Part shown: piece by piece, positions 6,487 to 35,885 of the stretch | Numbering within the stretch: position 1 is the stretch's first letter | Layout of the letters: every line of letters begins with the position of its first letter | Notes under the pieces: model-generated | Database searches by the model: none | The model's input: the letters and a program-made list of their open reading frames with translations, nothing else | What the model was told of the DNA's origin: nothing | Translations under genes and position numbers: made by a program | NCBI GenBank assembly: GCA_964449165.1 | Contig: CAYVAT010000013.1 | Location: forward strand, 407 to 64,406 | DNA from: an uncultured Eubacteriales bacterium | GTDB lineage: Bacteria > Acidobacteriota > Aminicenantia > Aminicenantales > Aminicenantaceae | Length of the DNA stretch: 64,000 nucleotides | Direction of reading: 5' to 3'

Positions 6487-6606
6487 TTTTCAGTGATTGA
6501 TAGTTAGTAGCTAACAGGGATCGGATTCAGCCTTCCTGTCGGCTATTTCTATCAGCTTGTCGGAGTGGAGGCTGCATTGCCGGAGGAACAAGAAAAGGAA
6601 GAAAAG

Positions 6607-7026
6607 ATGAGCGAGGAATTTGAGCCGCGTATAGTTGCTTTTTTATGCAACTGGTGTTCGTATGCCGGTGCGGATGTGGCGGGTTCGAGCAAACTAGAGA
6701 TGCCGCCTACCATAACACCCGTGAAGGTAATGTGTTCGAGCCGGGTTGATCCGGTAATGGTGATCACAGCTTTTCTGCGCGGGGCCGACGGTGTGCTGAT
6801 TGCCGGATGTCATCCGGGAGATTGTCACTACGACAAAGGCAATTATTACGCGCGCAGGCGATTTGCGGTTTTAAGAGAAATTTTCAATACGCTTAGACTT
6901 GAAGGGGAGCGGTTGAGGCTTTCCTGGGTCTCCGCGTCGGAAGGACCGCGATACGCAGAGGTAGTGCGGGAGTTTTCCGAAAAGATCAAGCAGTTGGGCC
7001 CGAACCCTGTAAAACAGAAGACATAA
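6607..7026 (+). CDS. MvhD-like protein, second paralog
   Basis: MSEEFEPRIVAFLCNWCSYAGADVAG...VMCSSRVDP...GCHPGDCHY. The ORF-track start is GTG 6565; ATG 6607 with AAGGAAG upstream matches paralog N-termini better. Confidence 0.7.
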   Translation: MSEEFEPRIVAFLCNWCSYAGADVAGSSKLEMPPTITPVKVMCSSRVDPVMVITAFLRGADGVLIAGCHPGDCHYDKGNYYARRRFAVLREIFNTLRLEGERLRLSWVSASEGPRYAEVVREFSEKIKQLGPNPVKQKT

Positions 7027-7053
7027 AACACCTTCAGGTGCTGGAGAAAGACT

Positions 7054-8340: not shown

Positions 8341-8355
8341 GCGAAGAGGAGTGTA

Positions 8356-10038: not shown

Positions 10039-11117
10039 AAGAAGGGCATGTAATCAAAGCAGCTGAAGGGACGAGTAAAGCTATAGCCGGGCTTTTAAAG
10101 AGCTCGCTGGAGAAGAAAATCTTTGAGGCTGTGCTTGTGCCAATACGCACAAACGAAGGATATAACTACGTTTTGACGGATAACGCCGACCTTCTGGAAA
10201 GGGCCGAGATAATGCCCCCGGTGATGTCTGTTCAAGGGGGCAAGGTGTTGCAGGCTCTGACTCGGCACGGGAAAAGCAGGAAAATCGCCGCCGTAATGCG
10301 GATGTGCGAAATACGGGCTGCTGTAGAGCTTTCCAAGTTGGAGCAGACGGATTTGGAGAACGTTTTCTTTATCAGTGTGGATTGTAATGGCGTAACACCT
10401 CTCTCCGATTACCTGGAAGATCCGTCCAGCGCCGGCACGAAGCTCCGGCCACTTTGCGAAATCTGTACGTCATTCAGTGTTGTTGGAGATAAACAGGCCC
10501 AGGATGTTGATATACACGCTGCAACCATGGGTGTAGATGAAGGAGAAGTGTTGTTTATTCCCATGAGCGATGACGGTGAAAGTGTGCTGGAGAAACTGGC
10601 CATTGATAAGAAAAAAGACGCCGGGAAATGGGTAAAGGAAACAGAGAAGTTGCAGAAGCAGCGTATAGCCGCCAGGGAAAAAGCTCTGAAAGAAACAAAG
10701 GAAATGGTAAAAGGACTGAACGGTTTGCTGGAGGTGTTCAGCCGGTGCATAGAATGTCACAACTGCCGCAGTGTATGCCCGATATGCTATTGTCGGCTCT
10801 GCTTTTCTGATAAGGATACTTTCCGGGAAACAGGCGCGGAATATCTTGATCGTGTGCAGGCCCAAGGGGTGATGAAGTGTACAGATGACCTTCTGCAGTT
10901 CCATTTGGGCCGGATGTCGCACATGAGCTTATCGTGCGTGTCCTGCGGAATGTGTGAAGATGTGTGCCCGGTGGACATACCGGTTGGACAAGTATTCAGC
11001 GCCGTAGCCGAGAAAACTCAGGCGATATTTGACTATTTTGCGGGTAAAAGTTCTGATGAGGAACAGCCGCTCAGGACATTCGAGCTGGGTGAATTGGTTG
11101 AAGTAGAGGACAAATGA
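10035..11117 (+). CDS. FrhB/FdhB/FpoF-family protein (coenzyme F420 hydrogenase/dehydrogenase beta-subunit-like flavo-Fe-S protein), paralog 1
   Basis: RMCEIRAAVEL corresponds to the FrhB motif GTPCQIQAVR. C-terminal CIECHNCRSVCPICYC and CVSCGMCEDVCP. The start ATG at 10035 overlaps the previous stop (ATGA); the ORF-track Met at 9939 lies inside the upstream gene. Confidence 0.65.
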   Translation: MKEGHVIKAAEGTSKAIAGLLKSSLEKKIFEAVLVPIRTNEGYNYVLTDNADLLERAEIMPPVMSVQGGKVLQALTRHGKSRKIAAVMRMCEIRAAVELSKLEQTDLENVFFISVDCNGVTPLSDYLEDPSSAGTKLRPLCEICTSFSVVGDKQAQDVDIHAATMGVDEGEVLFIPMSDDGESVLEKLAIDKKKDAGKWVKETEKLQKQRIAAREKALKETKEMVKGLNGLLEVFSRCIECHNCRSVCPICYCRLCFSDKDTFRETGAEYLDRVQAQGVMKCTDDLLQFHLGRMSHMSLSCVSCGMCEDVCPVDIPVGQVFSAVAEKTQAIFDYFAGKSSDEEQPLRTFELGELVEVEDK

Positions 11118-11155
11118 ATGGTCTGTGACCGGCCGCGCATGCTTGGAGACTTGAA

Positions 11156-12265
11156 ATGACTAAGATGTTGAAAATAGATAAAGCGATTTCAGACGGGACC
11201 AGAGATTTTCTGCGCTATCTTCTGGACAGCAAGAACGTGCGTAGTGTGGCAGTGCTGAGGAGAGATAGGACGTCTGGCTGGGTCAGCTACAGCCTGATCT
11301 CTGATCCGGAAAAGATAGAGGAAGCGGTCCCTTTTTCTCCGGTCATGCCATACAACGCGGGTGAGTATCTCTCTCGCCTCACATCCAAGGGACCGTTCGA
11401 TAAGCCTGTTGCGGTGGTATTGCGTCCATGCGAACAGCGAGCGTTTGTGGAGCTTGTAAAACGACAGCAGGGCAGTTTGGACAATATCATAACAATCAGT
11501 TCGGTTTGTCCGGGAGTTTATCCTTTGAAAACATTTGTTCGTGAGAACGAGGACAAGCTGTTTAAGGATTACTGGTCGGTGGTAGCTGATGGAAAACAAC
11601 CTGAGGGGATCCGGGACACGTGTTCGTTCTGTGAGCATTTTGTTCCGGCTGAAGCCGACATTGTCATACCCATAGCAGGCGAGAAGGATACGGGCAAAGA
11701 ATGCAAATTGTTCGCGAATACCGAAAAGGGAGCTGAACTACTGAAGGGGATAGATGGGAAAATACAGGAATCTGAACTGGAGACAAAAGGAACCGAAGCT
11801 ATCCGGCAGTTGCGGAAGGAAAACGAAGAAAAGATGCTGGCCGATCTGGGGAAAAAGTTATCGGGATTAGATGGGCTGGTAGAAATGTTCAGTACGTGCA
11901 TTGGCTGTCATGGATGTCGGTCGGTTTGCCCGATTTGTTACTGCCGCTTATGTGAATTTGATTCTTCTCGAAGTGAATACGAGGCACGAAAATATGAAAT
12001 CGAACTGCGCAAGAAGGGGGGCGTAAGAATACCCCCGGGCTCCATAGCCTTTCAGATAGGTCGGATGATCCATATAGGCCTTTCCTGTGTGAGCTGCGGG
12101 ATGTGTAGCGACGTGTGTCCCGCCGATATCCCGGTTGCAAATATTTTCAGGAAAGCGGGAAAGGCGGTCCAGGATGTGTTCGAATACATTCCTGGAAAGG
12201 ACCTTGAGGATAGTATCCCTGTCACGACATTTGAAGAAGAGGAATTGAGAAGTGTTGAGGATTAA
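11156..12265 (+). CDS. FrhB/FdhB/FpoF-family protein, paralog 2
   Basis: RPCEQRAFVELVK; CIGCHGCRSVCPICYCRLC; CVSCGMCSDVCPADIP. It aligns with paralog 1 throughout. Confidence 0.65.
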   Translation: MTKMLKIDKAISDGTRDFLRYLLDSKNVRSVAVLRRDRTSGWVSYSLISDPEKIEEAVPFSPVMPYNAGEYLSRLTSKGPFDKPVAVVLRPCEQRAFVELVKRQQGSLDNIITISSVCPGVYPLKTFVRENEDKLFKDYWSVVADGKQPEGIRDTCSFCEHFVPAEADIVIPIAGEKDTGKECKLFANTEKGAELLKGIDGKIQESELETKGTEAIRQLRKENEEKMLADLGKKLSGLDGLVEMFSTCIGCHGCRSVCPICYCRLCEFDSSRSEYEARKYEIELRKKGGVRIPPGSIAFQIGRMIHIGLSCVSCGMCSDVCPADIPVANIFRKAGKAVQDVFEYIPGKDLEDSIPVTTFEEEELRSVED

Positions 12266-12729
12266 GAGGGTGGTGAATCAGATTTTATTATCTTTGTTAT
12301 TTCATCTACAATTCCCGGAATTTTACTTTTTACCCCAGGAGTACATTCCTCGCCAAACGTAGTATTATCTTCTATTTCTATTGCATAAATTTCAATAATT
12401 TGAGGTATTTTATATCCCAGCTTCCTTCCGAGTTCAATTGCAGTTCTAATATTCACTCCATGTGAGTATGATGGAGTTGAAAAAGTGCCTATATCTTCCA
12501 GGTTTAGTTTGTAAAGGGTGCCAGGTGTTTCTTTTTCTGTTTTTATGGAGTCGATGATGATAAGTCTCTCGTATTCACCAATATAGTCAAGCAGTGAAAT
12601 TCCCGCCAGACTTGTTTTTATCACTTCAATATCAGGAAGGGAAAGTTTCTCTATCTCATTTGCCACACAGATGCCTACCGAATCATCTGTCAGAATTGGG
12701 TTTCCAACTCCCAATATAAGAGTTTCCAT
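12262..12729 (-). CDS. [NiFe] hydrogenase maturation endopeptidase (HycI/HybD/FrhD family)
   Basis: ILGVGNPILTDDSVGICVANEI...IIIDS is typical of hydrogenase C-terminal processing proteases. It sits directly downstream of the large subunit. Confidence 0.8.
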   Translation of the reverse strand: METLILGVGNPILTDDSVGICVANEIEKLSLPDIEVIKTSLAGISLLDYIGEYERLIIIDSIKTEKETPGTLYKLNLEDIGTFSTPSYSHGVNIRTAIELGRKLGYKIPQIIEIYAIEIEDNTTFGEECTPGVKSKIPGIVDEITKIIKSDSPPS

Positions 12730-12786
12730 TTTTGAAGACGGGAAATATCAATCCACAGTAATGAGCGTGAAGAGATCGAAATATTT

Positions 12787-14250
12787 TTACGACCTTCTGA
12801 TAGTGTCTATTATATTCGCTTTATGATCTCTAATGTTGACTTCGAGAGGCATATGCCCGGGCAGTGAATGAGTAGCACAGGCAAGGCAAGGGTCATATGC
12901 ACGGAATGCCATTTCTACCATGTTAAGTAATCCCTCAGATACCTTTCCCTCCTTTATGAGCCCTTTTGCCGCTTTCTCTATTGACATACATATCGAAGCA
13001 GCATTGTTAACTGTAGCAACAATTAAATTGACGTCTGTAAGAACACCTTTATCGTCTGTCTTGTAATGATGATAGAGAGTACCTCTTGGTGCTTCTACTA
13101 CGCCAATCCCTTCATCAGGAACAGCGGTTGGGATACTTCTAACATCGGGGTCGAGAATTTCCTCGTCCTGGGCTAACTCCAAAAGCCTTTCAGCTGCATA
13201 GAGAAGCTCCACTAGCCTTGCCCAATGATAGGCAAGAGTGTTGTGTGCTGGCTTACCACCCAAGATATTATACATTTTTTCATATTCTACTTGAGCCAGT
13301 GGCGTTGCCATACCATCGGACGCATTGAGTCTTGCAAGAGGAGCTACTCGATAAACTCCGCTGTCCTTTCCATCAACGAATCCCTTCCAGCCGACACCTT
13401 TAAGATATGGAAATTTTATGTAGCTCCACGGCTCAACATGCTCCTCAATATGATTCAGATACTCCCGAGACTTAAACTTGGCAAACTCCTTACCTTCAGG
13501 GTCAACTACTCTAATATCTCCGTCATAAAAATTGACTTTATTGTTCTCATCAACAAGTCCCATATAATATGTTTTGTGTTTGTAAATATCTCCCACAATG
13601 ACATCTACATACTCTTTGTTTTTGAGAACAATGTCTTCAAAAGCTTTCAAAGCGAATTTGGCAAATTCTATCGCATCTTTCCCTATTTGGATATATTCTT
13701 CTCTATCTTCTTTGGTAACCCCCTTGGATACACCCCCAGGAAGATTACATACGGGGTGAATAACCCTGCCTCCCTGCTTTGTAATGATGTTGCGCAGCCG
13801 CTTTCTGATATCTATAACCTTCTTGCCCGCGTCAAGACCAACTTTCTGAATGACTCCCAAAATATTCCTCTCTCCTGCGGGTGCCTGTGGTCCAACAACA
13901 AAATCAGGTCCCCCAAGGAAGAAGAAGTGGAGAGTATGGTCTTCAGCCATGAAAGCAGAATTAATAAGCTCTCTTATCTTCTTGGCCGGTGACGGAGGGG
14001 TTACATGGAACAAATCATCAAGCGCCTTGCCAGATGCCATATGATGGGTAGTGGGACATACGCCACATATCTTGGGAGTGATTCTCGGCATTTCCTCTGC
14101 CATGCGTCCTTCAGAAAATTTCTCAAATCCCCTCAGCTCAGGAACTTGAAAAAAAGCCTTCTCCACATTTCCCTCGTTATTAAGAAATATTTCTATCTTC
14201 CCATGACCTTCAAGCCTTGTTATTGGGTCTATCGTTATTCTTTTTGCCAT
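12787..14250 (-). CDS. mvhA: [NiFe] hydrogenase large subunit, Mvh/group-3c-like
   Basis: N-terminal RLEGHGKIEI and PKICGVCPTTHH; C-terminal DPCLACATHSLPGH (the Ni-Fe ligating CxxC pair); RBS AGGGAGA. Confidence 0.85.
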   Translation of the reverse strand: MAKRITIDPITRLEGHGKIEIFLNNEGNVEKAFFQVPELRGFEKFSEGRMAEEMPRITPKICGVCPTTHHMASGKALDDLFHVTPPSPAKKIRELINSAFMAEDHTLHFFFLGGPDFVVGPQAPAGERNILGVIQKVGLDAGKKVIDIRKRLRNIITKQGGRVIHPVCNLPGGVSKGVTKEDREEYIQIGKDAIEFAKFALKAFEDIVLKNKEYVDVIVGDIYKHKTYYMGLVDENNKVNFYDGDIRVVDPEGKEFAKFKSREYLNHIEEHVEPWSYIKFPYLKGVGWKGFVDGKDSGVYRVAPLARLNASDGMATPLAQVEYEKMYNILGGKPAHNTLAYHWARLVELLYAAERLLELAQDEEILDPDVRSIPTAVPDEGIGVVEAPRGTLYHHYKTDDKGVLTDVNLIVATVNNAASICMSIEKAAKGLIKEGKVSEGLLNMVEMAFRAYDPCLACATHSLPGHMPLEVNIRDHKANIIDTIRRS

Positions 14251-14329
14251 TTTATCTCCCTTTTCCTCAAAGTGATGTAAATTGTCTTATAAACTTAACA
14301 AACAATAAAAAATTGCTCCAAGCATTCAT

Positions 14330-15310
14330 CTATGCCATTCTCTTCCTTTTTAACAGCGAAGAAGGCAAACTATACATATAGAAAAGACCTGCCGGATCTA
14401 CTATCTGGTCGATTAACTTCTTCGTGTCTTCCTCTGTCATCTTCTCTTCTTCTTCCACGCCTATTATGGATGCAATTGCTGATAATCCTTTTGCCCCCTG
14501 GTCTACTACTTCCTTTGTCGGTCCAAAACATCCGCGACACGGCATATTTGCATTTATGCATCTCTCACCACAGCCGCTCCTGGTTACAGGGCCTAAGCAG
14601 ATAAGCCCTTCTTCTAAAAAACACTTCTCAGGGTCTGGTATTATCTCGTAGGGTCTCTTTATTTCCTTTATTGAGAGTTTATCCGGTTTTGTCTCTCCAC
14701 GTGGGCAAGTTTCACACAAGGATTTATCAGGTGCGAGAACTGCTCCCTTTTCGGGAAGCTTACCTTCCAATATAGCTGTTACCGCATTCATAATTAAATC
14801 TGGTGGCGGTGCACATCCAGGAAGATAATAATCAACATCGATTGTCTGGTCCAGTGTCTTGACTGTATCATAGAACTCAGGAAGCGTAAGCTCACCCTCA
14901 GGAATATTTGTTTTTTGTTGTGGCACTATCCCATTGGGGTTTGCTATAGAGGGTACTGTCTTGTAAACCCTCGTGAAAATTGTTTCCCTATTCCAAAAAT
15001 TTGCAAGCCCTGGTATTCCACCTAAATGAGAACAGGACCCAAACGCGACTACAAGCCCAGATTTCTTTCTCAATAGTTTCACCATCTCTTCCTGTTCTTC
15101 TGTTCTAATAGCACCGTTTATGAAACTCACTGCTATTTCTCCATCGCCCATCGCCTCCACATCCTTTTTCTTAAAGTCCAGTGCGACTGGCCAGAACGCT
15201 ATATCCACTGCCTCCACTACTTTTAATATATCCTCATTAAGGTCGACAATAGCTTCCTCACATCCACCACATGAAGCGCACCAATAAAATGCTACTTTTG
15301 GTTTAGCCAT
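14330..15310 (-). CDS. mvhG: [NiFe] hydrogenase small subunit, Mvh/group-3c-like
   Basis: VAFYWCASCGGCEE at the N-terminus (proximal cluster), with further Cys motifs. RBS AGGAGG. Positioned between mvhD and mvhA. Confidence 0.8.
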   Translation of the reverse strand: MAKPKVAFYWCASCGGCEEAIVDLNEDILKVVEAVDIAFWPVALDFKKKDVEAMGDGEIAVSFINGAIRTEEQEEMVKLLRKKSGLVVAFGSCSHLGGIPGLANFWNRETIFTRVYKTVPSIANPNGIVPQQKTNIPEGELTLPEFYDTVKTLDQTIDVDYYLPGCAPPPDLIMNAVTAILEGKLPEKGAVLAPDKSLCETCPRGETKPDKLSIKEIKRPYEIIPDPEKCFLEEGLICLGPVTRSGCGERCINANMPCRGCFGPTKEVVDQGAKGLSAIASIIGVEEEEKMTEEDTKKLIDQIVDPAGLFYMYSLPSSLLKRKRMA

Positions 15311-15348
15311 AATTGCCTCCTTCTAAAATAGACATCATTTCTACTTAT

Positions 15349-15750
15349 TTAGGATAATTCTAGGGGACCTAAATTTTTTACAGTTTCTGCCATTTCATTT
15401 GCTACTTTTGCAAATCTCTCTCCTTCGCCTGCTGCAACCCAGTCCAATCTAACTCTTTCTTCTTCAATCCCCAGCTGCTTCAGGGTATTCTTCAAAAGAT
15501 GTGCTCTCCGAAGTGCCTTATAGTTTCCTGTTTTGTAATGGCAGTCCCCGGGATGGCATCCTAAAATTAACACTCCGCTTGCGCCCTCTTTTAATGCTTG
15601 TATCACAAGCTCTGGATCTACACGACCGCTGCACATAACCCGAACGATTCTTACATTCGCAGGATAATTCAATCGTGCGCCCCCAGCCTTATCTGCTCCT
15701 TCGTATGAACACCAATTACATAGAAAACTAACGATTGTTGGCTCATTCAT
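15349..15750 (-). CDS. mvhD: MvhD ([2Fe-2S] subunit linking hydrogenase and HdrA)
   Basis: TIVSFLCNWCSYEGADKAG...RVMCSGRVDP...GCHPGDCHY; RBS AAGGGGG; 4-nt overlap with the hdrA stop. Confidence 0.8.
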   Translation of the reverse strand: MNEPTIVSFLCNWCSYEGADKAGGARLNYPANVRIVRVMCSGRVDPELVIQALKEGASGVLILGCHPGDCHYKTGNYKALRRAHLLKNTLKQLGIEEERVRLDWVAAGEGERFAKVANEMAETVKNLGPLELS

Positions 15751-17669
15751 CTTACTACCCCCTTAATTTCAGCAAATATTTGCTCCTTTGTGAAGTGCTT
15801 TGCTCTCGCTGCACCCGACGGACAGGCTGATACACAAGTTCCACACCCTCTACAAAGAGTCTCATCTACAACTGCAATCTTTTTTTCTACATCCCGAGAT
15901 ATGGCAGAGTATGGACATAGAACAATACATACGTTACAGCCACTGCATAAATCTTCACTTATCTCTGATACCTTTGCTTCTAACTCAAGTTTTTCACCAG
16001 GTATAAGTCTTGAAAGTATTCTTCCTGCAGCGGCTCCTCCTTGAGCCACTGCATCTCCAATATCCTTTGGTCCCTGACAGCTCCCTACTGCAAAAACGCC
16101 TTCAAGTGCTGTAGCAAAAGGCTTCATCAATGTGTGCTCCTCAGCAAAAAAGCCCTGGTCATCTCTGGCTATATCAAGGAGTTCGGCTATTTTTTCAGTA
16201 TCTTCGTTAGGCTCAACTGCAGGTGCAAGTACTACCATATCTACGGATATCTCTTTTCCATTTGTTCCCACTTTTATTTTTTCTCCTTCATCAGTAACAG
16301 TCACATCCTCTCCACTTCTTATAAACTCTATACCTTTCTCCACAGCCTTCTTATGCATCATTTGATGTTCTTTCTTCGGAAGACATAGGTCAGTATAGAA
16401 GTGATGCATCTTTACCGCGGGCAATTTTTCTTTCATAAGATGGGCCAAGGTGAGTGAATACATACAGCATATGCCTGAGCAATAGCCCTTCTCTTTCCTG
16501 CCAACACAGTGAATGAAAGCTATGGATTTTGGCTCCTTCCCGTTCTTTAATTGAATCTTCCCTCCTGTTGGTCCATTTGAGGCATTCAACCTCTCTAATT
16601 GCATGGCTGTTAATACATTGTCATATTTTCCATATCCATATTGAGGAAGTTCTTTGGGATCAAAAAGTGCAGAGCCCGTAGCTAAAATAATTGCACCTAC
16701 GTTCTTCTCAATTGTCTTGTCCTCGTCATCATAATTAATGGCGTCAAAGGAACAACTTTCTTTGCAGATGCTGCATTCCTCTCCCTTGAATCTCTTGCAG
16801 TTATTCTTATCTATGACAGGCACATTAGGAAGACCACCAGCGAACGGAATATATATTGCTTTCCGGGATGACAATCCCTCATCATATTCATTGGGCACTT
16901 CCACAGGACACGGCTCAAAACATGCATCACATCCAATGCAGGCTTCTTCGTTTACGTATCGGGCTTTCTTCTTAACCTTGACAGTGAAATTCCCAAACGA
17001 CCCAACAACTTCCTCTAGCTCGCTATAAGTGAATGCTTCTATATTCTCTTTTTGAAGGACTTCTTGCAGTTCAGGTGCTATCATGCAAGGTGCACACTCC
17101 AAAGTTGGGTAAACTTCTTCAAATCTTGCTGTAAGCCCACCAATACAGGGGCTCTTTTCCACGAGATAGACCTTCCTGCCCTTCTGTGCGAGTGATAGAC
17201 ATGCCTCTAATCCAGCTACCCCTCCCCCTACTACTAGAACATCAGGCTGAATATCAATTTCCTTTTTCTCTATAGGTTCTTGTAAAGAAGTCCTGTTTAT
17301 TGCAGCTATAACAAGACTTTTTGCTTTTTCAGTTGCAGCAGATTTTTCAGCGGTAACCCAGGCACACTGCTCCCTTATGTTCGTCATCTGCATAAGATAA
17401 GGATTCAGCCCTGCTTCCTCACAAGCCCTCATAAATTTAATCTCGTACTGCTTTGGAGTGCAGGCAGCAATCACAACTCTTGAAAGCTTCTCATTCTTTA
17501 TTTCTTCTTTGAGAAATTTTAGCCCTTCTACTGAACACAGGAGATTATGACTCTTTGCCACTGCTACATCCTCGATGCCCTTTACTTCATTGGCAATAGC
17601 ATCTACATCTACCTTGTCTCCTATGTTTGGTCCACATTTACACACATATACGCCTATCTTTTCAGCCAT
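15747..17669 (-). CDS. hdrA: Heterodisulfide-reductase subunit A-like flavoprotein, canonical full-length HdrA architecture
   Basis: IGVYVCKCGPNIG, VLVVGGGVAGLEACL, inserted ferredoxin CIGCDACFEPCP/CSICKESC, IHCVGRKEKGYCSGICCMY, C-terminal CSGCNVCIVLCP/CRGCGTCVSACPSG; RBS AAGGAGG. Confidence 0.85.
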   Translation of the reverse strand: MAEKIGVYVCKCGPNIGDKVDVDAIANEVKGIEDVAVAKSHNLLCSVEGLKFLKEEIKNEKLSRVVIAACTPKQYEIKFMRACEEAGLNPYLMQMTNIREQCAWVTAEKSAATEKAKSLVIAAINRTSLQEPIEKKEIDIQPDVLVVGGGVAGLEACLSLAQKGRKVYLVEKSPCIGGLTARFEEVYPTLECAPCMIAPELQEVLQKENIEAFTYSELEEVVGSFGNFTVKVKKKARYVNEEACIGCDACFEPCPVEVPNEYDEGLSSRKAIYIPFAGGLPNVPVIDKNNCKRFKGEECSICKESCSFDAINYDDEDKTIEKNVGAIILATGSALFDPKELPQYGYGKYDNVLTAMQLERLNASNGPTGGKIQLKNGKEPKSIAFIHCVGRKEKGYCSGICCMYSLTLAHLMKEKLPAVKMHHFYTDLCLPKKEHQMMHKKAVEKGIEFIRSGEDVTVTDEGEKIKVGTNGKEISVDMVVLAPAVEPNEDTEKIAELLDIARDDQGFFAEEHTLMKPFATALEGVFAVGSCQGPKDIGDAVAQGGAAAGRILSRLIPGEKLELEAKVSEISEDLCSGCNVCIVLCPYSAISRDVEKKIAVVDETLCRGCGTCVSACPSGAARAKHFTKEQIFAEIKGVVR

Positions 17670-21457: not shown

Positions 21458-22252
21458 ATGAAAAAAGAAACTATGTTGGTTGTAGAAGATGAGGATATTA
21501 TGCGGGAGGCATTATCCGATTACTTCTCTGACGGGGGCCATAAAGTTGATACCGCCAATAATGGGGATAACGCATTGGAAAAATTTAATTTAGAAGATTA
21601 CAACGTCATGATAGTCGATCTTAAATTACCCGGGCGTGATGGGCTTTCCGTGCTGAAGGAGATTAGAGCGAAGAATCCGAAGGCAAAAGTTATTATCATC
21701 ACGGCTTATCCCTCGATTGATACTGCAAAAGAGGCTATACGTGGTGGTGCGCTTGACTACTTACCAAAACCTTTTGAGCTGGACTATCTTGAAACCATAA
21801 TCAACCGATCTTACGAAGTTGAAATAGTACCTACACCGCCTGTTGAAGAACCAATAGTTGAAGAGAAAATTGTAACTCCATGCATCTGGATGCAAGCTGG
21901 CTTAGTAAAAAAACGGATGTGTACGCTCGGTTATCAATGCAATAATGCGTGTAAGTTTCATGCAGCAATGATGAAAAAAGAGGAATTCAGGAATGATCCA
22001 AGGATTAAACCTTTTCTTGACAAACTTAACTCTCAAATAGGAAGGAAGCAGTGCAGATATACTATGAGTGGAGAAATTGCTCTGCGATCCTGCGATAGGC
22101 TTTACCGCTGCGAGAGCTGCGAATTTCACCAGACAATCGAGGATGAGGTAGACCGCCAACTTGCCATTAAGGCCGCAAATCAAAAAAGGAAGCAGGCCAA
22201 AATGTATGGCCGGGTGGCAACGATGCATAGTCCATCCCGAAGTGACCACTAA
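21458..22252 (+). CDS. Response-regulator receiver protein with a C-terminal cysteine-rich domain of unknown function
   Basis: CheY-like receiver (LVVEDEDIM...DLKLPGRDG...YLPKPF). The ~130 C-terminal residues carry about 10 Cys (CIWMQ...CTLGYQCNNACKFH...CRYT...SCDRLYRCESCEFH) and no recognizable DNA-binding motif. Confidence 0.65.
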   Translation: MKKETMLVVEDEDIMREALSDYFSDGGHKVDTANNGDNALEKFNLEDYNVMIVDLKLPGRDGLSVLKEIRAKNPKAKVIIITAYPSIDTAKEAIRGGALDYLPKPFELDYLETIINRSYEVEIVPTPPVEEPIVEEKIVTPCIWMQAGLVKKRMCTLGYQCNNACKFHAAMMKKEEFRNDPRIKPFLDKLNSQIGRKQCRYTMSGEIALRSCDRLYRCESCEFHQTIEDEVDRQLAIKAANQKRKQAKMYGRVATMHSPSRSDH

Positions 22253-22455: not shown

Positions 22456-22989
22456 TTATTTTCTATCTTTTTTTAGATTTTCCCTAATCATTCTTATCCC
22501 GTCAGGAGAATTGATAGGCATCTCCTTGAGCTGAGCCTTTATTTTTCTTGTGTCTAAATAGAACTTGTAGCTATTCTTTTTGTGGACATAGATTAAATCT
22601 ATTTCAGGATTCCCCAAAATAAGAGTTATGATTGTTTGTCCAATATCACCCAAAGGCTTCCGGTCGATATGGCTGTGCTGGAAATCGGCTTTGACTTTAG
22701 TCCCTTCTCCCTTTTTGGATTTTATGGAGAGGTGACCATTTGCTGCATTGGCGGCTTGTGATAAGAGAGACAGTCCTAGGCCAAATCGGCGAACCGTTTT
22801 AGAAGTGTAAAAGGGATCAAGCACCTTTTCCATGGTTTGCTTATCCATACCCATACCGTTGTCGGTGATTTCGATAGACAGAAAATCTTTCTCTTTGTCT
22901 TCTTTTATCCTTATTTCAATCTTATCGGCTTTGGCTGCCACAGAATTTTCGACGATGTCTAGAATGTGCAAAGAGAGATCTTCCATCAA
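22456..22989 (-). CDS. Small GHKL-type ATPase (anti-sigma-factor/Ser-kinase-like HATPase_c protein)
   Basis: LHILDIVENSV...ITDNGMGMD...GLGLSL are the N, G1 and G2 boxes of a histidine-kinase-like ATPase lacking a DHp domain. Confidence 0.6.
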   Translation of the reverse strand: MMEDLSLHILDIVENSVAAKADKIEIRIKEDKEKDFLSIEITDNGMGMDKQTMEKVLDPFYTSKTVRRFGLGLSLLSQAANAANGHLSIKSKKGEGTKVKADFQHSHIDRKPLGDIGQTIITLILGNPEIDLIYVHKKNSYKFYLDTRKIKAQLKEMPINSPDGIRMIRENLKKDRK

Positions 22990-23012
22990 AACCTCAGCCT
23001 GGATTATTCAGG

Positions 23013-23744
23013 TTAGTGAATTAATTTTCTCCCATCTTCATTTTTCAAGGCTTTTTTTATTTCGGCCACTGTGCCGTCCTTGAGCAAGAATGATGTAAAG
23101 CTTTTTCCGATATCATCGGGATAATGGGCATCTGAAGAGCAGGTGATCGGATAATCCTTTGAATACCTTTTCTTTGCCTCTTCGGAAGTGATTGCAGGAG
23201 AAATTTCTAAAGCATCCAATTCCAAATTATCCGGGATGAACCCCAGTTGGCCGATGATGCTGAAAGATTCTCTATCTATATGGGAGGCGATCGCTATTCC
23301 GTCGAGAGAGTGAATGATTTTGATGATTTTTTCAAGAGGAATAGTCGTAGCTCCAATCAAGAGTTTATTATTGAAACCAAGCACTTCCTCTTTTTCATTC
23401 ACGATGACTTGCATCCCGAAGGCTTCTTCATCATTTTCTCCAGGCAACTTATCATAGACATGCTCCTGCAGTTTTAGAGCGTTTTCTATTTCGTCAAAAA
23501 GTGCCAAGACATGAACTTCTTCTTGAGAGGTCACTTCCATCCCGGGGAAAACATTAATATTCATCTTCTTGGCAGCGTTCATTATGGCCAGAGAATTTTC
23601 AGATGAATTATGATCACAGATGCCTATGATATCTATTTTTTTTTTCTTTGCCGCCTTGAGTATTCTCTTTGGAGACATATCCAGTTCAGTACAGGGAGAA
23701 AGGCAGGTGTGGATATGCAAGTCCGCTTTGAAAGGTCTGAGCAT
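23013..23744 (-). CDS. PHP-domain metal-dependent phosphoesterase
   Basis: ADLHIHTCLSPC...IIGICDHN fits the PHP (polymerase/histidinol-phosphatase) His-rich motifs. Confidence 0.65.
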   Translation of the reverse strand: MLRPFKADLHIHTCLSPCTELDMSPKRILKAAKKKKIDIIGICDHNSSENSLAIMNAAKKMNINVFPGMEVTSQEEVHVLALFDEIENALKLQEHVYDKLPGENDEEAFGMQVIVNEKEEVLGFNNKLLIGATTIPLEKIIKIIHSLDGIAIASHIDRESFSIIGQLGFIPDNLELDALEISPAITSEEAKKRYSKDYPITCSSDAHYPDDIGKSFTSFLLKDGTVAEIKKALKNEDGRKLIH

Positions 23745-23747
23745 GAA

Positions 23748-24089
23748 TTAATCTTTTAAACTTATCAATTCATACAATTTACCCGAAACTTCAAAGGCCA
23801 TTTCTTCACTGCCAAGGAGGGGCAAATTTTCCTCCTTTGCTTTTTGAAGCGTGTTTTCATCAGGTTCTCGGTTATTGACTATGATTATTCCAGACAGGTC
23901 TTTCAGTTTGGCCACAGCGATAATATTCTGATGGGTCTGAAGAGTGATCCAGAGATTGTTTTCTTTGCTGTTGGCAATCACATCACTAAGAAGATCGCTC
24001 GTGTATCCACTTGTAACCTCTACATCCAACTTATCTTGGCCTGTCAAAACTTTAAGCTGTAATTTTTCAATGATCTCTTTAAGTTTCAT
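23748..24089 (-). CDS. DRTGG-domain protein
   Basis: 113 aa resembling the DRTGG/CBS-associated domain (TSDLLSDV...LWITLQTHQNIIAVA), and paralogous to 25905-26270. Confidence 0.5.
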   Translation of the reverse strand: MKLKEIIEKLQLKVLTGQDKLDVEVTSGYTSDLLSDVIANSKENNLWITLQTHQNIIAVAKLKDLSGIIIVNNREPDENTLQKAKEENLPLLGSEEMAFEVSGKLYELISLKD

Positions 24090-25462
24090 TTTATCGCCTT
24101 TCCTTTTTTGCTTGTTTTATTGACGGTAGACTTGGATTGAGTTAAAAAAGCAGATTTATTAAGCAATTTTGAAAATTCTTGGGTGAGTTTTTTTAACCTT
24201 CGGGGAAGATTGAAAATACAGTCAGTGAGTTCTGCTTCTCCTTTAACCACGTCTTCAGCAAAGGTTAAGCAAGTGGGAGCACCACATGCTCCGCAGTCAA
24301 TTTTGGGCAGTGATTCGTAGATATCCTCTTTTTCTTTTCTCTTCTTTATTGCTTTGGCTAAATCTTTATCGAGAGGTTTGAGGGGGCGGGGCTCCAGTTT
24401 TCCATCTAAGAAAAAGTATTTCTGGTTATAGAGCTTTCGTACCTCCCTGATGTCTGGACAAGCTTTTATTTGTTCGAACTCTAAGGTCTCGATCAATTTC
24501 AGAATTTTGTTGTAAGAAATATAAATATTTTGCACTGTCAAAGAGCCTCCGACACACCCTTGAGGGCAAGAATAGGCTTCGACGAAGTCAATGTTTCTCA
24601 GTTTTCCTCTTTCAATATCATCAAAGACTTTTAAGATTTCAGCTAGACCTGAAACAGCCAGGGAGTTTTTCATTCTCAAGGTTCGGCAGATGCCTCCAAC
24701 CATTGCCCATCCAATTCCCAGAATGCAGATGCTCTCCAGTGCTTTCCGGTAGCTGCCTTTTTCTATGCCTTCCATAGCCGAAAGAAGAGGTGGGTAAATG
24801 TCTGAGATAGAGATGGCTCCGTCTATGTAAGATTTCCCTCTTTCTGCAGGCTGTCTGATAGATATCATTTTCACCGGGCATGGTGTGAGATAAAAGATTC
24901 CGATCTCTTTTTCTTTAAGTTTTAGTTGTTTTGATTTTTCCTTTTTGATTTCTCGAGCAGCCAATTCTCGTGGAGTATCAATGGGTATAACTTGGTCGAT
25001 GAGGCCTGGATATTTGACCTGGATTAAACGCACGATAGTCGGACATACATTAGAAATAAGCGGCTTGGGACCCTTATATTCTCGGAGATATTCCTGGATG
25101 GCGAAACTAACTTCTCCGCAGGTAAACGCCAGGTCAAAAGCATCATCGAATCCCAGTTTTTTTAATCCGACGAGGATTTTCTCTGGCAGAATTTCTCTTC
25201 CGAATTGAGCATATAGAGCAGGAGAGGGCATGGCAACTGTGTGGCGGAATTTAGTGAGTTCTCCAAAGGGATCTGTCAAAGGGATGATGGCGTTGTGAGG
25301 ACAAACTGTGATACATTCTCCACAATCGATACATTTTTCTTCGATGATGGTTGACTTTCCATTTCTGATCCTGATGGCTTGAGTGGGACACACCCGCAAA
25401 CATTTCATACGGCCATGACACTTTTCCGGATCAATCCGGATGGAATGAAAGTATTGATTCAT
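24086..25462 (-). CDS. [FeFe]-hydrogenase-like protein with degenerate H-cluster motifs, an N-terminal 2x[4Fe-4S] ferredoxin and a C-terminal CxxCx4C..C Fe-S domain; probably sensory or non-catalytic
   Basis: CHGRMKCLRVCP and CIDCGECITVCP. H-domain motif equivalents: L1 NVCP (versus TSCCPxW), L2 TPCPVKM (versus MPCxxK), L3 EAYSCPQGCVGG (versus ExMACxGGCxxG). The C-terminus CGACGAPTC...C resembles the RnfB-type Fe-S domain. Confidence 0.6.
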   Translation of the reverse strand: MNQYFHSIRIDPEKCHGRMKCLRVCPTQAIRIRNGKSTIIEEKCIDCGECITVCPHNAIIPLTDPFGELTKFRHTVAMPSPALYAQFGREILPEKILVGLKKLGFDDAFDLAFTCGEVSFAIQEYLREYKGPKPLISNVCPTIVRLIQVKYPGLIDQVIPIDTPRELAAREIKKEKSKQLKLKEKEIGIFYLTPCPVKMISIRQPAERGKSYIDGAISISDIYPPLLSAMEGIEKGSYRKALESICILGIGWAMVGGICRTLRMKNSLAVSGLAEILKVFDDIERGKLRNIDFVEAYSCPQGCVGGSLTVQNIYISYNKILKLIETLEFEQIKACPDIREVRKLYNQKYFFLDGKLEPRPLKPLDKDLAKAIKKRKEKEDIYESLPKIDCGACGAPTCLTFAEDVVKGEAELTDCIFNLPRRLKKLTQEFSKLLNKSAFLTQSKSTVNKTSKKGKAIK

Positions 25463-25908
25463 TTTTTTTCTGTTTTATCCAGGCAGATCGTTATCTCTAA
25501 TGACGTTCCTTTGCCAGGGATTGAAGAAATTTCAAATTTATCAGCATTTTTTTTAATATTGGGAAGTCCCATGCCTGCGCCAAATCCCATCTCTCGCATT
25601 TCCTCGGTGGCGGTCGAAAAACCTTTCTCCATGGCCAAATCTACATTCTCAATCCCAGGACCTTCGTCTTCGAGCTTAAAATGAAGTTTCTCAGGAGTAA
25701 TGTTCAGAGTGAGCACACCTCTGTGAGCATACATAACAACATTCATTTCTGCCTCATAGGAGGCGATGGCTGCACGGACGATGACAGAATGGTCGATACC
25801 AATCTCCTGGAGAATTTCTTTGATACTTGTGGATGTCCTTCCTCCATTGCTGAAATCACCGCCTTTGATTTCAAAGCGATGAGATAATTTATTCTTGTCG
25901 CTCATCAT
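25459..25908 (-). CDS. Small GHKL-type ATPase (HATPase_c-only protein), paralog of 22456-22989
   Basis: LEDEGPGIENVDLAMEKGFST...GFGAGMGLPNIKK (G1/G2 boxes). The likely start is MMSDKNK, since the ORF-track N-terminus overlaps the upstream DRTGG gene. Confidence 0.55.
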   Translation of the reverse strand: MMSDKNKLSHRFEIKGGDFSNGGRTSTSIKEILQEIGIDHSVIVRAAIASYEAEMNVVMYAHRGVLTLNITPEKLHFKLEDEGPGIENVDLAMEKGFSTATEEMREMGFGAGMGLPNIKKNADKFEISSIPGKGTSLEITICLDKTEKK

Positions 25909-26270
25909 CGTTTTTTTGGGGAGAGGCCACTTACACCTGGAAGACCATGACTGAAGAGAAGGCCACAAGCTGTGTACATCATGTATTTGGTTAATAGAAG
26001 GGGGATTCTTTTTTCTCTGGCTAGCTCGATTCCCGTTTTATCTGGCTTTTTGCCCCGGACATACACAATAGCTTTGGCATCTATTATATTTGCTGTCCTG
26101 ACAGATTGAGCATTGGATAAACCAGTCAGAAGCAGAATTCCTGGTTTACCAAAAGCTAAGACATCGCTCATCAGGTCAGATCCTCCTGCAAATTTGATTT
26201 CCATGTCAAGACAGTCAATTCCGCTGATGACCTCAGCCTGAAGGAGTTCCTTGATTTCTTTTAAGGTCAT
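25905..26270 (-). CDS. DRTGG-domain protein
   Basis: 121 aa; SDLMSDVLAFGKPGILLLTGLSNAQSVRTANIIDAKAIVYVRG is paralogous to 23748-24089. It is the first gene of the minus-strand cluster. Confidence 0.5.
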   Translation of the reverse strand: MTLKEIKELLQAEVISGIDCLDMEIKFAGGSDLMSDVLAFGKPGILLLTGLSNAQSVRTANIIDAKAIVYVRGKKPDKTGIELAREKRIPLLLTKYMMYTACGLLFSHGLPGVSGLSPKKR

Positions 26271-26458
26271 TTTAGTTTTCTGGGGCGTTTCTTCTAAGTA
26301 AAGGAATGACTTTGGCTATTTTTATGTTGGCCGACGCCATATTCGCCCTTACTCTGGCTTTCTATGAATCTACCTTTTAGGAATTCATATGATAACTGTT
26401 CGGGTAGTCAGAAGTCAATATTAGTAAGCAGAGAGAAGGCATGCAAATCTAATGGGGA

Positions 26459-26893
26459 TCAGTTGCTTTTTCTTATTCCCGTACCCACATCTAGTAAGCA
26501 TATGTTTTCTGGAATATTGCAGGGATTTTTTCCATTTTGAAATCGAAGCATCTGTTGGGCAAGACGGCTGAATTTTTCTCTGAATTCTTCAAGTTCAGCT
26601 TGAGCCAGAGGCGTATCGATTTTATCAACGACATTGATTCTAGCCAGTGTATTGGTCCGATAAATCCCATTTGGATTATCCAGATCCATAGAAAATTCAC
26701 CTGCTTTCTTCGCATAAGGGAACTTCAAATAGGTCTAGGGTTCAACATGCTCACGGATATAATCGGTGCACTCATCGCATTTGAAATCTTCATAAGAACC
26801 GTCGACAGACATCATCCTCAGCTTTCCATCATAAAGATCGAGCAAACCATCTTCAGTCACAGTTCCTAAAAATCCTGTGTTTATAACACCCAT
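26459..26893 (-). pseudogene. Decayed fragment of a [NiFe] hydrogenase large-subunit gene (internal segment only, with an in-frame TAG)
   Basis: The minus-strand translation ...DGKLRMMSVDGSYEDFKCDECTDYIREHVEP*TYLKFPYAKKAGEF...IYRTNTLARINVVDKIDTPLAQAELEEF aligns with mvhA residues ...DGDIRVVDPEGKEFAKFKSREYLNHIEEHVEPWSYIKFPYLKGVGW...VYRVAPLARLNASDGMATPLAQVEYEK. The stop at 26735-26737 replaces the conserved Trp. There are no N- or C-terminal metal-binding regions. Confidence 0.65.
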
Positions 26894-27053
26894 GGATTTA
26901 ACGACTTCCAAATATTATATTAGGCCGAACAAATATCTTCACTGATCCTGGGTGACATTATTCAGGAATCAAAAATGTATTTAAACTTGCTTTTTTGCTG
27001 GAAAAAAAAGTAAAATGAGAAAAATTAAATCATAAAGAAAAGAAGGAGGAAGA

Positions 27054-33770: not shown

Positions 33771-35885
33771 TTGCAAATAAGGATGTTCATATTGAATAAA
33801 AAAAATTCCTTTATCATCCTCCTTCCCAGTTTTCTCATGATTCTTTATGGTTATGTATCGAATTCCGCTTATTCACAGGAAAAGAAAGATCAAGAAGTCA
33901 TGGAATATGAAGTGAGTGTTACTCTAAAACTGGTCCAGGTTTATGTCACGGACAGCGACGGCAAACCTGTGATAAATTTAGAAAAAGAAGATTTTGAGCT
34001 TTACGACAACGGAAAGCTCCAGTCCATCACAGATATTGAGAAACACACCCTCTTCATGCCCTCCGACAAGCCAAGGCCGCAACAAAAAGAAGAAATCCCA
34101 TCTCGCACTAATTTAAATCGTAAATTTTTTCTCTTCTTTGATTTTGCATTCAATTCTCCCAGAGGGATAAAAAACGCCAAGGAAGCAGCTCTCTATTTTA
34201 TTGATCATCAATTGGACCCATCTGATGAGGTTGGGGTTCTTTCTTATTCCATTACCAAGTATTTGACTGTTCATGAGAACTTAACGACCAATCACAAAAA
34301 AGTCAGGGAAGCTGTTGAAGGGTTGGGCATAAAAGGTATCTTGGGAAGAGCAGAAGACGTGGAGCAAAAATACTGGGAAATGGTAGGTGAAATCGATAGA
34401 AATCCTAATTTACCGGAGATTGAGAAAATAAGTTTAGAAAATGATTTTATTCAACTCAGCTATGATAGGATTTATTTCAAACAGCACGTGTCAAATTTTT
34501 CTAGAACAATGAAAGAATTAGGCCAAGCACTCAGCCATGTACAAGGACGTAAGAATATTCTTTATCTCTCAACCGGGATTCCCGGTTCAATATTTGAAGG
34601 TGGCGGAACAAAATCCCCATATCACTCACGGAAGTTAATCTTTAAGGGTGCTATTGCAGATACACACCTAAACGATAGATACGAAGAGATGATAAAGATT
34701 TTAGCCGCGTCGAACAGCTCTGTTTACCCTATATATGCAGAAGGAACAAGCATGGACTTAAATCAGAGATATGGCTTTCAGGATAAGGGTCAGCTTGGAA
34801 AATCTTCACTCCAGAGAATGGCTATAGGAACAGGAGGAAAGTATTTTGGCAACATCAACAGCTACGAGACATTCATGGAAGAGATTCAAAGTGCCACCAG
34901 CTCTTTTTATGTGCTGGGTTACTACATAGGGGAGAAATGGGATGGAAAATATCATAAAATAACAGTAAAAGTCAGGCGAAAAGGATGCAAAGTCCGCTCT
35001 CAAGCAGGATATTTCAATCCCAAGCCATTCAGCGAGCTATCTGAGTTCGAAAAGGAGTTAGATTTTATAGAATTGGCCCTGGAAGAAAGCTCACAATATC
35101 AGGCTCCTCTTAGTTTTCCTGTGGGAACCATCTCTTTTTCGGCTGAAAGAATATCTGGACTTGCTACCATATCTAAAATACCCGTTGAAATGGTTCGCGA
35201 GCTCTCCGGAAAAAAGGTTGAATTCGTTAATCTTATCTTCGATGAGAAGGACGATCTCTTTTCCTTCAAGGGTTGGAGAATAAATCTTGCTAAATTACCT
35301 CAAAATGACATTTTTTATTATTCTCTTGCCTCTCTTCCTCCCGGCAAATACACATCCCGCATTGTCATACGAAACACGAAAACGGGAAAATCAGCAGTGT
35401 CTTCTTCGCCGGTTATCATTCAAAGACCTCTAGATTCCGGCTTAAATCTCTCCTCTCCTCTGCTACTTGTGTCTGAAAAAAGTCCGGTCTATTTGAAAGG
35501 AGGTCTTATAGAGCAGGAGGATGAAGATAAAAAATCTATCGACCTGATAGACTTGTATTCCTGCAACCTCAAATTTTTTGCGCCTGTTGTGAAAGAAATA
35601 GAGCAAGGAATTCCAGAGCTTACAGCGGTGATTCGCAGTTACATTCCTCAAATCCAATATCCAGACATGAAGATTTCTCTTCGTGTGATGGATCAATCTT
35701 CAGGTGAAATCATGCCTATACCTTTTTCTATTCTTCGCCAAGATCCCAAGAATCATACTCAAATATCCTTTATCATTCTTGAAGTTCACTCCTTAAAACC
35801 AGGTAACTATATTATCTATTTCGATGCGGAAGAGACAAAGACTCGATGGAAATCCCAAGTCAGCACCACTTTTTCCATTAAATGA
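33771..35885 (+). CDS. Secreted von Willebrand factor A (VWA)-domain protein
   Basis: Signal peptide, then a VWA-like segment RKFFLFFDFAFNSPRGIKNAKEAALYFID...DEVGVLSYS that resembles the 'VWFA-related' domain common in Acidobacteria-like lineages. Confidence 0.55.
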   Translation: MQIRMFILNKKNSFIILLPSFLMILYGYVSNSAYSQEKKDQEVMEYEVSVTLKLVQVYVTDSDGKPVINLEKEDFELYDNGKLQSITDIEKHTLFMPSDKPRPQQKEEIPSRTNLNRKFFLFFDFAFNSPRGIKNAKEAALYFIDHQLDPSDEVGVLSYSITKYLTVHENLTTNHKKVREAVEGLGIKGILGRAEDVEQKYWEMVGEIDRNPNLPEIEKISLENDFIQLSYDRIYFKQHVSNFSRTMKELGQALSHVQGRKNILYLSTGIPGSIFEGGGTKSPYHSRKLIFKGAIADTHLNDRYEEMIKILAASNSSVYPIYAEGTSMDLNQRYGFQDKGQLGKSSLQRMAIGTGGKYFGNINSYETFMEEIQSATSSFYVLGYYIGEKWDGKYHKITVKVRRKGCKVRSQAGYFNPKPFSELSEFEKELDFIELALEESSQYQAPLSFPVGTISFSAERISGLATISKIPVEMVRELSGKKVEFVNLIFDEKDDLFSFKGWRINLAKLPQNDIFYYSLASLPPGKYTSRIVIRNTKTGKSAVSSSPVIIQRPLDSGLNLSSPLLLVSEKSPVYLKGGLIEQEDEDKKSIDLIDLYSCNLKFFAPVVKEIEQGIPELTAVIRSYIPQIQYPDMKISLRVMDQSSGEIMPIPFSILRQDPKNHTQISFIILEVHSLKPGNYIIYFDAEETKTRWKSQVSTTFSIK

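Follow-up and report, generated by a model that had tools for sequence, protein, structure and literature searches.

A conserved operon around a group D-like [FeFe]-hydrogenase homologue in Aminicenantes and its putative role in hydrogen or redox signalling

The window analysed here is a stretch of 64,000 nucleotides (nt) from contig CAYVAT010000013.1 of an uncultured Aminicenantales bacterium, and its subject is a set of six open reading frames (ORFs) on the minus strand, at 22456-26270, whose third gene encodes a HydS-like [FeFe]-hydrogenase homologue. The original prediction, made from the sequence alone, had described six co-oriented genes and named their families, and Pfam matches for all six ORFs bear this out. 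In order of transcription the genes encode a DRTGG protein of 121 amino acids (aa) (DRTGG1, 25905..26270; Pfam DRTGG); a SpoIIAB/RsbW-like GHKL ATPase of 149 aa, a putative Ser/Thr kinase (ATPa, 25459..25908; HATPase_c_2 and HATPase_c); the HydS-like protein of 458 aa, a homologue of group D (M2e-type) [FeFe]-hydrogenases (24086..25462; two Fer4 matches, Fe_hyd_lg_C at E 1e-26 and PF04060 FeS at E 4e-15); a second DRTGG protein of 113 aa (DRTGG2, 23748..24089; DRTGG and Hpr_kinase_N); a predicted PHP-family metal-dependent phosphoesterase of 243 aa (23013..23744; PHP and PHP_C); and an orphan histidine-kinase-type catalytic and ATP-binding (CA) domain with a conserved C-terminal extension of ~70 aa, 176 aa in all (ATPb, 22456..22986; HATPase_c, E 7e-18). 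The first three junctions are ATGA stop/start overlaps, the fourth is a gap of 3 nt and the fifth one of 23 nt; this overlap and spacing place the true start of gene 2 at ATG 25908 and that of gene 6 at ATG 22986, each slightly inside the ORF as first called (25459-25968 and 22456-22989, respectively). The six genes form one tight, translationally coupled operon.

The HydS-like protein consists of a 2x[4Fe-4S] domain (the Fer4 families span residues 8-60), an H-domain and a C-terminal Cx2Cx4Cx16C domain (CGACGAPTC-x16-C, residues 390-415, the part matched by PF04060); Pfam gave no PAS match in it. Its H-cluster motifs are degenerate, as had been read from the sequence: in an alignment to the Desulfovibrio hydrogenase DdH, L1 reads SNVCP against TSCCP, with C299 replaced by Val (V139) and C300 kept (C140); L2 reads TPCPVKM against MPCxxK, with M353 replaced by Thr (T193) and K358 kept (K198); and L3 reads EAYSCPQGCVGG against EYMACPGGCVCG, with M497 replaced by Tyr (Y297). 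Residues C140, C195, C299 and C303 of the protein align with the H-cluster cysteines C300, C355, C499 and C503 (CpI numbering). The ferredoxin domain and the cysteines of L2 and L3 are kept, the additional C-terminal Fe-S domain is present, and the proposed loss of the proton-relay cysteine of L1 is confirmed by the alignment, which has no second, shifted Cys in that motif. Searched exhaustively with HMMER, 1.8 billion representatives yielded 365 HydS relatives at E<1e-30, and conservation was read from an alignment of 58 members with pairwise identities of at most ~50%. Fifteen cysteines are invariant in these 58 relatives (C15, C21, C25, C44, C47, C50, C54, C140, C195, C299, C303, C390, C393, C398 and C415), eleven of them accessory-cluster and four H-cluster cysteines; the position of the relay cysteine, C299 of the reference enzymes, is occupied by A, F, S, T, V, H, L or Y, and by Cys in none.

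The M2e or group D class is defined by an F-domain, an H-domain, a Cx2Cx4Cx16C motif, the lack of a PAS domain and the replacement of C299, M353 and M497 (PMC8163306). By these marks the window protein is assigned to this known class of putative sensory [FeFe]-hydrogenases, in keeping with the earlier view of it as a sensory-type homologue without the proton-relay cysteine. Group D was proposed to be sensory in 2010-2012 and has been termed 'sensory' since 2012, owing to nearby protein kinases and bifurcating hydrogenases (PMC3561251), and a 2024 survey still treated it as functionally undefined (PMC11216029). One member, TamHydS of Thermoanaerobacter mathranii, was the subject of in vitro studies from 2020 to 2026 (PMC8163306, PMC13104023): it takes up the synthetic [2Fe]adt (azadithiolate) cofactor, works in both directions, ~1000-fold more slowly than enzymes of group A, is CO-tolerant and shifts its secondary structure under H2 (PMC8163306, PMC13104023), and its N-terminal F-clusters are an essential electron path (PMC13104023). 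Its interaction partners were stated in 2026 to be not known, and their identification was called critical (PMC13104023). The original prediction had known of no functional characterisation of such a cluster; given the work on TamHydS this does not stand for the class, and it does stand for the accessory proteins and the signal path.

These accessory proteins are best described one by one. The two ATPases had both been called serine-kinase-like, which is right for ATPa and not for ATPb. ATPa matches the NCBIfam model for anti-sigma F factor (spIIAB, 7e-12), and its close homologues are named RsbT or anti-sigma regulatory factor in their source records; its AlphaFold2 (AF2) model, with a predicted local distance difference test (pLDDT) score of 85, has SpoIIAB (1l0o/1til/1th8), RsbW (6m36) and UsfX (8ih8) as top Foldseek matches, at template modelling (TM) scores of 0.6-0.84 overall and 0.75-0.84 to SpoIIAB and RsbW, and the N-box (E72/N76), G1 box (D101xGxG) and G2 box (GFGxGMGLPN) are conserved in 56 orthologues. 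ATPb, in contrast, carries a catalytic domain of the histidine-kinase type rather than the SpoIIAB type: its best sequence matches in the PDB are the CA domains of KinB, YycG and CckA, it has no HisKA/DHp domain, and N15, D43xGxG, D58PF and G70LG72 are conserved. Beyond the CA domain, residues 103-119 hold a conserved F103...H107-x-D109-x-x-P112-x-G114 (SHIDRKPL here), which is similar to the H-box of HisKA, SHELRTPL, and might serve as a permuted phospho-acceptor site.

For DRTGG1 the AF2 model (pLDDT 91.6) has the DRTGG domains 3l2b (CBS-pyrophosphatase) and 2ioj (AF1212) as its top Foldseek matches, followed by HPrK/P N-terminal and Mur-ligase N-terminal domains; no STAS fold matched the model in Foldseek. 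Residues D32, S35, T49 and A60 are kept in at least 90% of 47 DRTGG1 orthologues. DRTGG2 is a paralogue (35% identity) with the conserved motif Y29, D32-L-L-S35-x-V37, W47, T49, H53, N55, and the D32-x-x-S35 and T49 that both proteins have in common lie, in the DRTGG1 model, at the N-terminus of a helix and where a strand meets a loop. The PHP protein has the full set of metal ligands, D8, H10, H12, H45, E70, H155, D205 and H207, all kept in 36 orthologues, in agreement with its prediction as a phosphoesterase; its nearest sequence relatives are the PHP domains of TrlF, Ppl and EndoQ, a similarity at the level of the domain only. An anti-phage defence system of the Ppl/TrlF type was considered and rejected, as the PHP domain alone matches Ppl/TrlF and the other five proteins have no PADLOC hit. 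Literature searches found nothing relevant joining DRTGG to hydrogenase and nothing on a PHP domain with sensory FeFe hydrogenase. The partner-switching output that had been suggested for the operon does not hold in its canonical form, because the DRTGG-fold partner is not a STAS protein, the phosphatase is PHP and not PP2C, and the operon encodes no sigma factor or DNA-binding output.

The accessory genes were also followed across genomes. Scanning one genome per species gave at least 593 species with a HydS relative, among Aminicenantes, Terriglobia, Bryobacterales, Ignavibacteria, Sumerlaeota, Chlorobi, Eisenbacteria and Zixibacteria, and further among Calditrichota, Gemmatimonadota, Bacteroidales, Planctomycetota, Chloroflexi, Desulfobacterota and Bacillota. 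The alignment of 58 sequences is too diverse to seed a locus search, and one of 12 sequences was used. ORFs were called in 81 loci, clustered, and labelled with Pfam and custom hidden Markov models (HMMs); the module counts cover the 60 loci with sufficient flanking DNA and are lower bounds, since the crude ORF caller overlooks small genes where the GC content is high. ATPa lies directly upstream of HydS in 51 of these 60 loci and DRTGG1 is present in 43; all six genes occur in identical order in 17, from many phyla, and thus form a conserved unit. Where PHP is present (32 loci), DRTGG2 is found in 26 and ATPb in 22, whereas the 28 PHP-negative loci have DRTGG2 in 2 and ATPb in 0; the core of the module is DRTGG-ATPase-HydS, and DRTGG2-PHP-ATPb is an optional block that is gained and lost together. 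Natural fusions occur among the 50% representatives: DRTGG-HydS (P0126, P0204), HATPase_c_2 (ATPa)-HydS (P0158), and HydS-DRTGG with DRTGG at the HydS C-terminus (P0143, P0163, P0177, P0264). They are an argument for joint action of the proteins in one complex. No PAS domain was found in ten longer HydS relatives, which have DRTGG or HATPase_c_2 extensions instead. As a separate observation, the complete Aminicenantes genome CP070825.1 has a second copy of the module (locus L082, 1629617-1650066), shortened to DRTGG-ATPa-HydS-DRTGG, with a 3.2-kb stretch without called genes upstream of it that is possibly another decayed hydrogenase locus.

The module stands in three kinds of surroundings. 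The order in Bacillota is DRTGG-ATPa-HydS-DRTGG-PHP-NuoE-ATPb-HydD-NuoF-HydA, a classical HydABC context. In what we call type A loci (Aminicenantes, Acidobacteriota, Sumerlaeota, Chlorobi and some Ignavibacteria), the six genes stand between HdrC-HdrB-HdrA' and NuoE-HydD-NuoF-(Fer2+HdrA-like)-MvhD-MvhG-MvhA, an NAD(H)-linked Mvh/Hdr [NiFe] system; the Aminicenantes relatives L001 and L083 have an intact mvhG-mvhA-hycI directly upstream of the module. The third arrangement, seen in type C loci (Zixibacteria, Bacteroidales, Calditrichota and Ignavibacteria; L022, L025-L029, L031, L038, L039, L045, L048, L054, L078), reads Cys-rich 184-aa protein-DRTGG-ATPa-HydS, then NuoE-NuoF-(NuoG/molybdopterin)-NfnAB; no other H-cluster protein is found nearby in them, and the Cys-rich protein has no Pfam match. 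A second [FeFe]-hydrogenase after NuoF was considered for these loci and rejected, the gene in question being Fer2 plus HdrA-like without H-cluster motifs in type A and a NuoG/molybdopterin protein in type C. NuoF-type genes lie within 10 kb of the module in 48 of 71 loci, accompanied by either [NiFe] Mvh/Hdr (17 loci) or a true HydA (10 loci). The common denominator of the contexts is the NuoEF module and not the type of hydrogenase, and outside Bacillota the module accompanies NuoEF/Hdr/[NiFe] Mvh genes, not [FeFe] HydABC. The bifurcating-type HydA beside the module in Bacillota reads TSCSPGW rather than TSCCPGW in L1 (L059, L063, L066-L068, L071, L074, L079, L080); we do not count this as a new motif, because the solved Acetobacterium woodii HydA1 (7q4v) has it too and it is hence a known variant.

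For TamHydS, a proton path specific to group D has been proposed through E252, S249, D265 and E289 (PMC10407848); the E252V variant loses >99.99% of H2 oxidation, and E252V or E252D is described as abolishing it (PMC10407848). An alignment of 128 members of the family was used to map these positions. In the window HydS, I258, V255 and S271 stand in place of E252, S249 and D265, and E295, the equivalent of E289, is the sole residue of the path that is kept. The full TamHydS signature (A/S, S/T, E, D, E, L) was found in Bacillota-type loci only, and to the Bacillota proteins that bear it (as A/S/E/D/E/L) the window HydS is 39-41% identical over ~430 residues. Glu at the E252 position is seen in Bacillota-type loci, and non-Bacillota lineages mostly have Q, I, V, M or L there. 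By clade, this position holds I, V or M in Aminicenantes, Q in the loci of Acidobacteriota, Chlorobi and Ignavibacteria, and I, M, V or L in those of Zixibacteria and Bacteroidales. The path proposed as specific to group D holds for the Bacillota branch only, a point that matters for studies of how the protein scaffold tunes the H-cluster. Both candidate positions for proton relay to the amine bridgehead are hydrophobic in the window HydS (V139, I258), and the CN-binding Lys K198 is kept; such a pocket fits a non-catalytic, signal-type role, and would also suit a protein to which the [2Fe] subcluster is never delivered.

The proton path also bears on whether HydS is an enzyme in its own right, that is, a slow but genuine H2-converting subunit that would send electrons through its ferredoxin domain to partners of the NuoEF, Hdr or Nfn type, with the small ATPases, the DRTGG proteins and PHP serving to regulate or assemble the enzyme instead of forming the output of a sensor. 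TamHydS, after all, is active in both directions, though slow, and needs its F-clusters for electron transfer, and in type C loci HydS is followed directly by NuoE-NuoF, the NuoG/molybdopterin protein and NfnAB with no second H-cluster protein. We nevertheless judge a catalytic role distinctly unlikely for the window protein: it lacks every proposed proton-relay residue bar the E289 equivalent, when mutation of E252 is enough to nearly abolish H2 oxidation in TamHydS; no NuoEF adjoins the operon in the window; and a distinct bona fide hydrogenase always stands beside the module where the locus is of the Bacillota kind or type A.

Without the [2Fe] subcluster the protein would be a redox sensor with [4Fe-4S] clusters only, comparable to Narf/Nar1 of eukaryotes; its signal would be cellular redox state, ferredoxin or O2 and not H2, passed on through the same ATPase, DRTGG and PHP partners. 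The hydrophobic V139 and I258 would suit such a protein, and the four conserved H-cluster cysteines would be kept in either case, as they would still hold the [4Fe-4S]H cubane. A search with NCBIfam models, limited to the 64-kb window and not extended genome-wide, found no HydE, HydF or HydG among its large ORFs; no HydE/G-type radical-SAM genes were found in the flanks of the 81 loci, and a literature search for Aminicenantes and HydG found nothing. Beside the module in Aminicenantes and Acidobacteriota loci there is moreover no true [FeFe] HydA but [NiFe] Mvh instead, so that a maturation system may not be needed there otherwise. Set against this are the CN-ligand-bonding Lys (the K358 equivalent) and the Pro/Ser pocket motifs, which are retained, the continuity of the family with cofactor-binding proteins of the TamHydS type, and the persistent genomic link to hydrogenases, which argues for H2 as the signal. 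We hold a cofactor-less protein to be rather unlikely, though it is the main rival to the reading that follows.

We lean, with moderate confidence, towards a signalling role for the module: HydS, itself very slow, would inform the SpoIIAB-like kinase and the DRTGG partners of H2 or redox state, and the module would control NuoEF-linked hydrogenase systems. Going beyond co-encoding and the apparent competence of the proteins, we infer that HydS is loaded with the H-cluster and responds to H2 or to redox state, which it would report by a conformational change and not by flux; with neither the relay cysteine of group A nor the glutamate relay proposed for group D, it is expected to turn over H2 very slowly. 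Its state would be read by ATPa and the two DRTGG proteins, held with it in one complex; DRTGG2 stands where group C sensors have their PAS domain. ATPa would use ATP to phosphorylate or lock a partner, the likeliest target being a DRTGG protein at the conserved Ser35/Thr49, and the optional DRTGG2-PHP-ATPb block would provide a phosphoesterase for reset and a further ATP-dependent step. What the module controls is probably a bifurcating hydrogenase system that is NAD(H)-linked and contains NuoEF: in Bacillota this would be the [FeFe] HydABC, and in Aminicenantes and other non-Bacillota an [NiFe] hydrogenase of the Mvh type together with Hdr. A regulatory role of such sensors is supported by the deletion of the group C sensor gene hfsB, which rewires fermentation (PMC5707799). 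It is possible, though we regard it as doubtful, that the module is specifically an [FeFe]-type H2 sensor controlling [NiFe] Mvh/Hdr/NuoEF systems by undescribed chemistry, with a SpoIIAB-like kinase acting on DRTGG (not STAS), a PHP reset (not PP2C), and a pocket without any proton relay in which H2 binding would be turned into a conformational signal.

Several points weigh against a signalling module of this kind. The DRTGG fold is neither STAS nor a known phospho-acceptor, and Pfam finds no sigma factor or DNA-binding protein among the six operon genes. Type C loci, with HydS beside NuoE-NuoF and no other hydrogenase, would fit a catalytic role too, and the maturases HydE, HydF and HydG were not found in the 64-kb window. 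Because the [NiFe] genes next to the operon are decayed and the module is intact, the module cannot depend on that particular hydrogenase. As to a signalling route within HydS, H2 does not reduce the C-terminal cluster in TamHydS (PMC13104023).

The decayed genes lie just upstream of the operon, at 26456..26916 on the minus strand, and were recovered by tblastn: they are the relic of a second Mvh-type [NiFe] hydrogenase operon, consisting of an internal mvhA fragment (residues 211-336, 126 aa, of a 480-aa large subunit, 82.5% identity), interrupted at codon 60 by an in-frame stop, and a hycI fragment (residues 54-73, 20 aa). Against the near relative L084, with 92-98% DNA identity, the relic shows three deletions of 1.8 kb, 268 bp and 371 bp, and the L084 large subunit is itself already shortened. 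These upstream [NiFe] genes are a pseudogene relic; the original prediction had placed the operon between two hydrogenase-related loci, and both exist, one intact (HdrA-MvhD-MvhG-MvhA-HycI, 12262-17669) and the other a mere remnant. One may ask whether the operon itself is a decaying, non-functional leftover of a larger hydrogenase locus, as the fragment with its in-frame stop and the shortened second copy in CP070825.1 would allow. This we consider highly improbable: all six ORFs are intact and have coupled starts, all catalytic and cluster-binding residues are present, the six proteins are 77-91% identical to their L001 counterparts, and the module (23000-26456) is 98.3% identical in DNA to L084 (9453-12909), when both flanks reach 92-93%. 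The higher identity of the module than of its flanks suggests either recent exchange or unusually strong constraint. L084 has a 230-bp spacer between PHP and ATPb that the window lacks.

Downstream of the operon and convergent with it are a response regulator of 264 aa (21458-22252, plus strand), an NtrC-type sigma-54 activator and a double-PAS histidine kinase, followed by an ArsR regulator and then the intact HdrA-MvhD-MvhG-MvhA-HycI locus. Pfam gives no match to the Cys-rich C-terminal half of the response regulator, in which the cysteines are spaced roughly as C-x12-C-x5-C-x3-C ... C-x13-C-x5-C-x2-C. Synteny of the two-component trio extends to L083, L084 and L085, whereas L001 lacks the trio, and sigma-54 activators are found near the module in 4 of 82 loci, without enrichment; the trio was therefore rejected as a general output of the module, and its adjacency is treated as lineage synteny. 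A promoter-like site, TTGACT-18-TATCAT, sigma-70-like, lies ~120 nt upstream of gene 1 (26389..26418, minus strand) as a weak match in a consensus scan; in promoter and terminator scans of the operon region, such sites were no more frequent than in shuffled background. Rfam and ARAGORN found nothing within or beside the operon, the Rfam matches being three tRNAs only. Farther off, a large Hdr/Flx-like cluster (123-12265, plus strand) includes a fusion of a NuoF C-terminal part with a GltD-like part (620 aa), a Fer2 plus HdrA2-like protein (1096 aa), two MvhD, DsrE, split HdrA-like flavoproteins and an FrhB-like protein; it is a possible NAD(P)H-linked partner for the Mvh hydrogenase whose genes lie on the opposite strand. 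An ORF of 704 aa at 33771-35885 (plus strand) has no Pfam match.

The signalling route of group D [FeFe]-hydrogenases is a stated gap, and the comparative data name likely partners for it: a SpoIIAB-like kinase, two DRTGG proteins, a PHP phosphoesterase and an orphan kinase domain, some of which are fused to HydS in nature. The HydS class is not limited to fermentative Bacillota with HydABC but is widespread in sediment and soil phyla with [NiFe] Mvh/Hdr; an [FeFe] sensor beside [NiFe] systems would, if true, mean cross-talk between two hydrogenase superfamilies. New in this analysis are an explicit account of the accessory module with its sub-blocks, the natural fusions, the link to [NiFe]/Hdr outside Bacillota, the lack in these clades of the proton relay proposed for group D, and the decayed [NiFe] neighbour.

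Among known systems the closest is TamHydS and its group D relatives, with which the window protein has in common the 2x[4Fe-4S] domain, the H-domain, the Cx2Cx4Cx16C domain, the lack of PAS and the replacement of C299 and both pocket Met residues; the Bacillota loci also carry the same accessory genes (DRTGG, SpoIIAB-like ATPase, DRTGG, PHP and histidine-kinase-like ATPase). The window protein is ~40% identical to the proteins with the TamHydS signature, but has I, V and S for E252, S249 and D265. The Bacillota module lies upstream of a trimeric group A3 HydABC, whereas no NuoE/NuoF/HydA follows the window operon, and ATPb is interleaved with hydC/hydD in Bacillota and directly follows PHP in the window. 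Group C (M2f), represented by the HydS of T. maritima and of R. albus and by HfsB of Thermoanaerobacterium with its kinase/phosphatase genes, likewise has a HydS-type H-domain without C299, a C-terminal four-Cys cluster and a linked GHKL Ser/Thr kinase and phosphatase; in group C, however, a PAS domain follows the C-terminal cluster, where the window module has a DRTGG protein (fused in some lineages), and the phosphatase is PP2C where the window module has PHP.

Two further systems resemble the module. The partner-switching sets SpoIIAB-SpoIIAA-SpoIIE and RsbW-RsbV-RsbU/P have the fold and ATP-binding motifs of ATPa, whose gene adjoins that of a small alpha/beta protein of ~115 aa, with the phosphoesterase two genes further; the window module differs from them in having DRTGG in place of STAS and PHP in place of PP2C, in having no linked sigma factor, and in including an Fe-S/H-cluster protein. 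In HoxBC-HoxJ-HoxA of Cupriavidus necator (PMC5707799), a slow hydrogenase serves as sensor for the expression of energy-conserving hydrogenases, which is the same logic as proposed here, and the module has a histidine kinase with PAS and a sigma-54 activator of the NtrC type as neighbours in the window and in three Aminicenantes relatives; the putative sensor of the window is, however, of the [FeFe] type, and the two-component genes are convergent with the operon, not co-transcribed with it, and their adjacency looks specific to the lineage.

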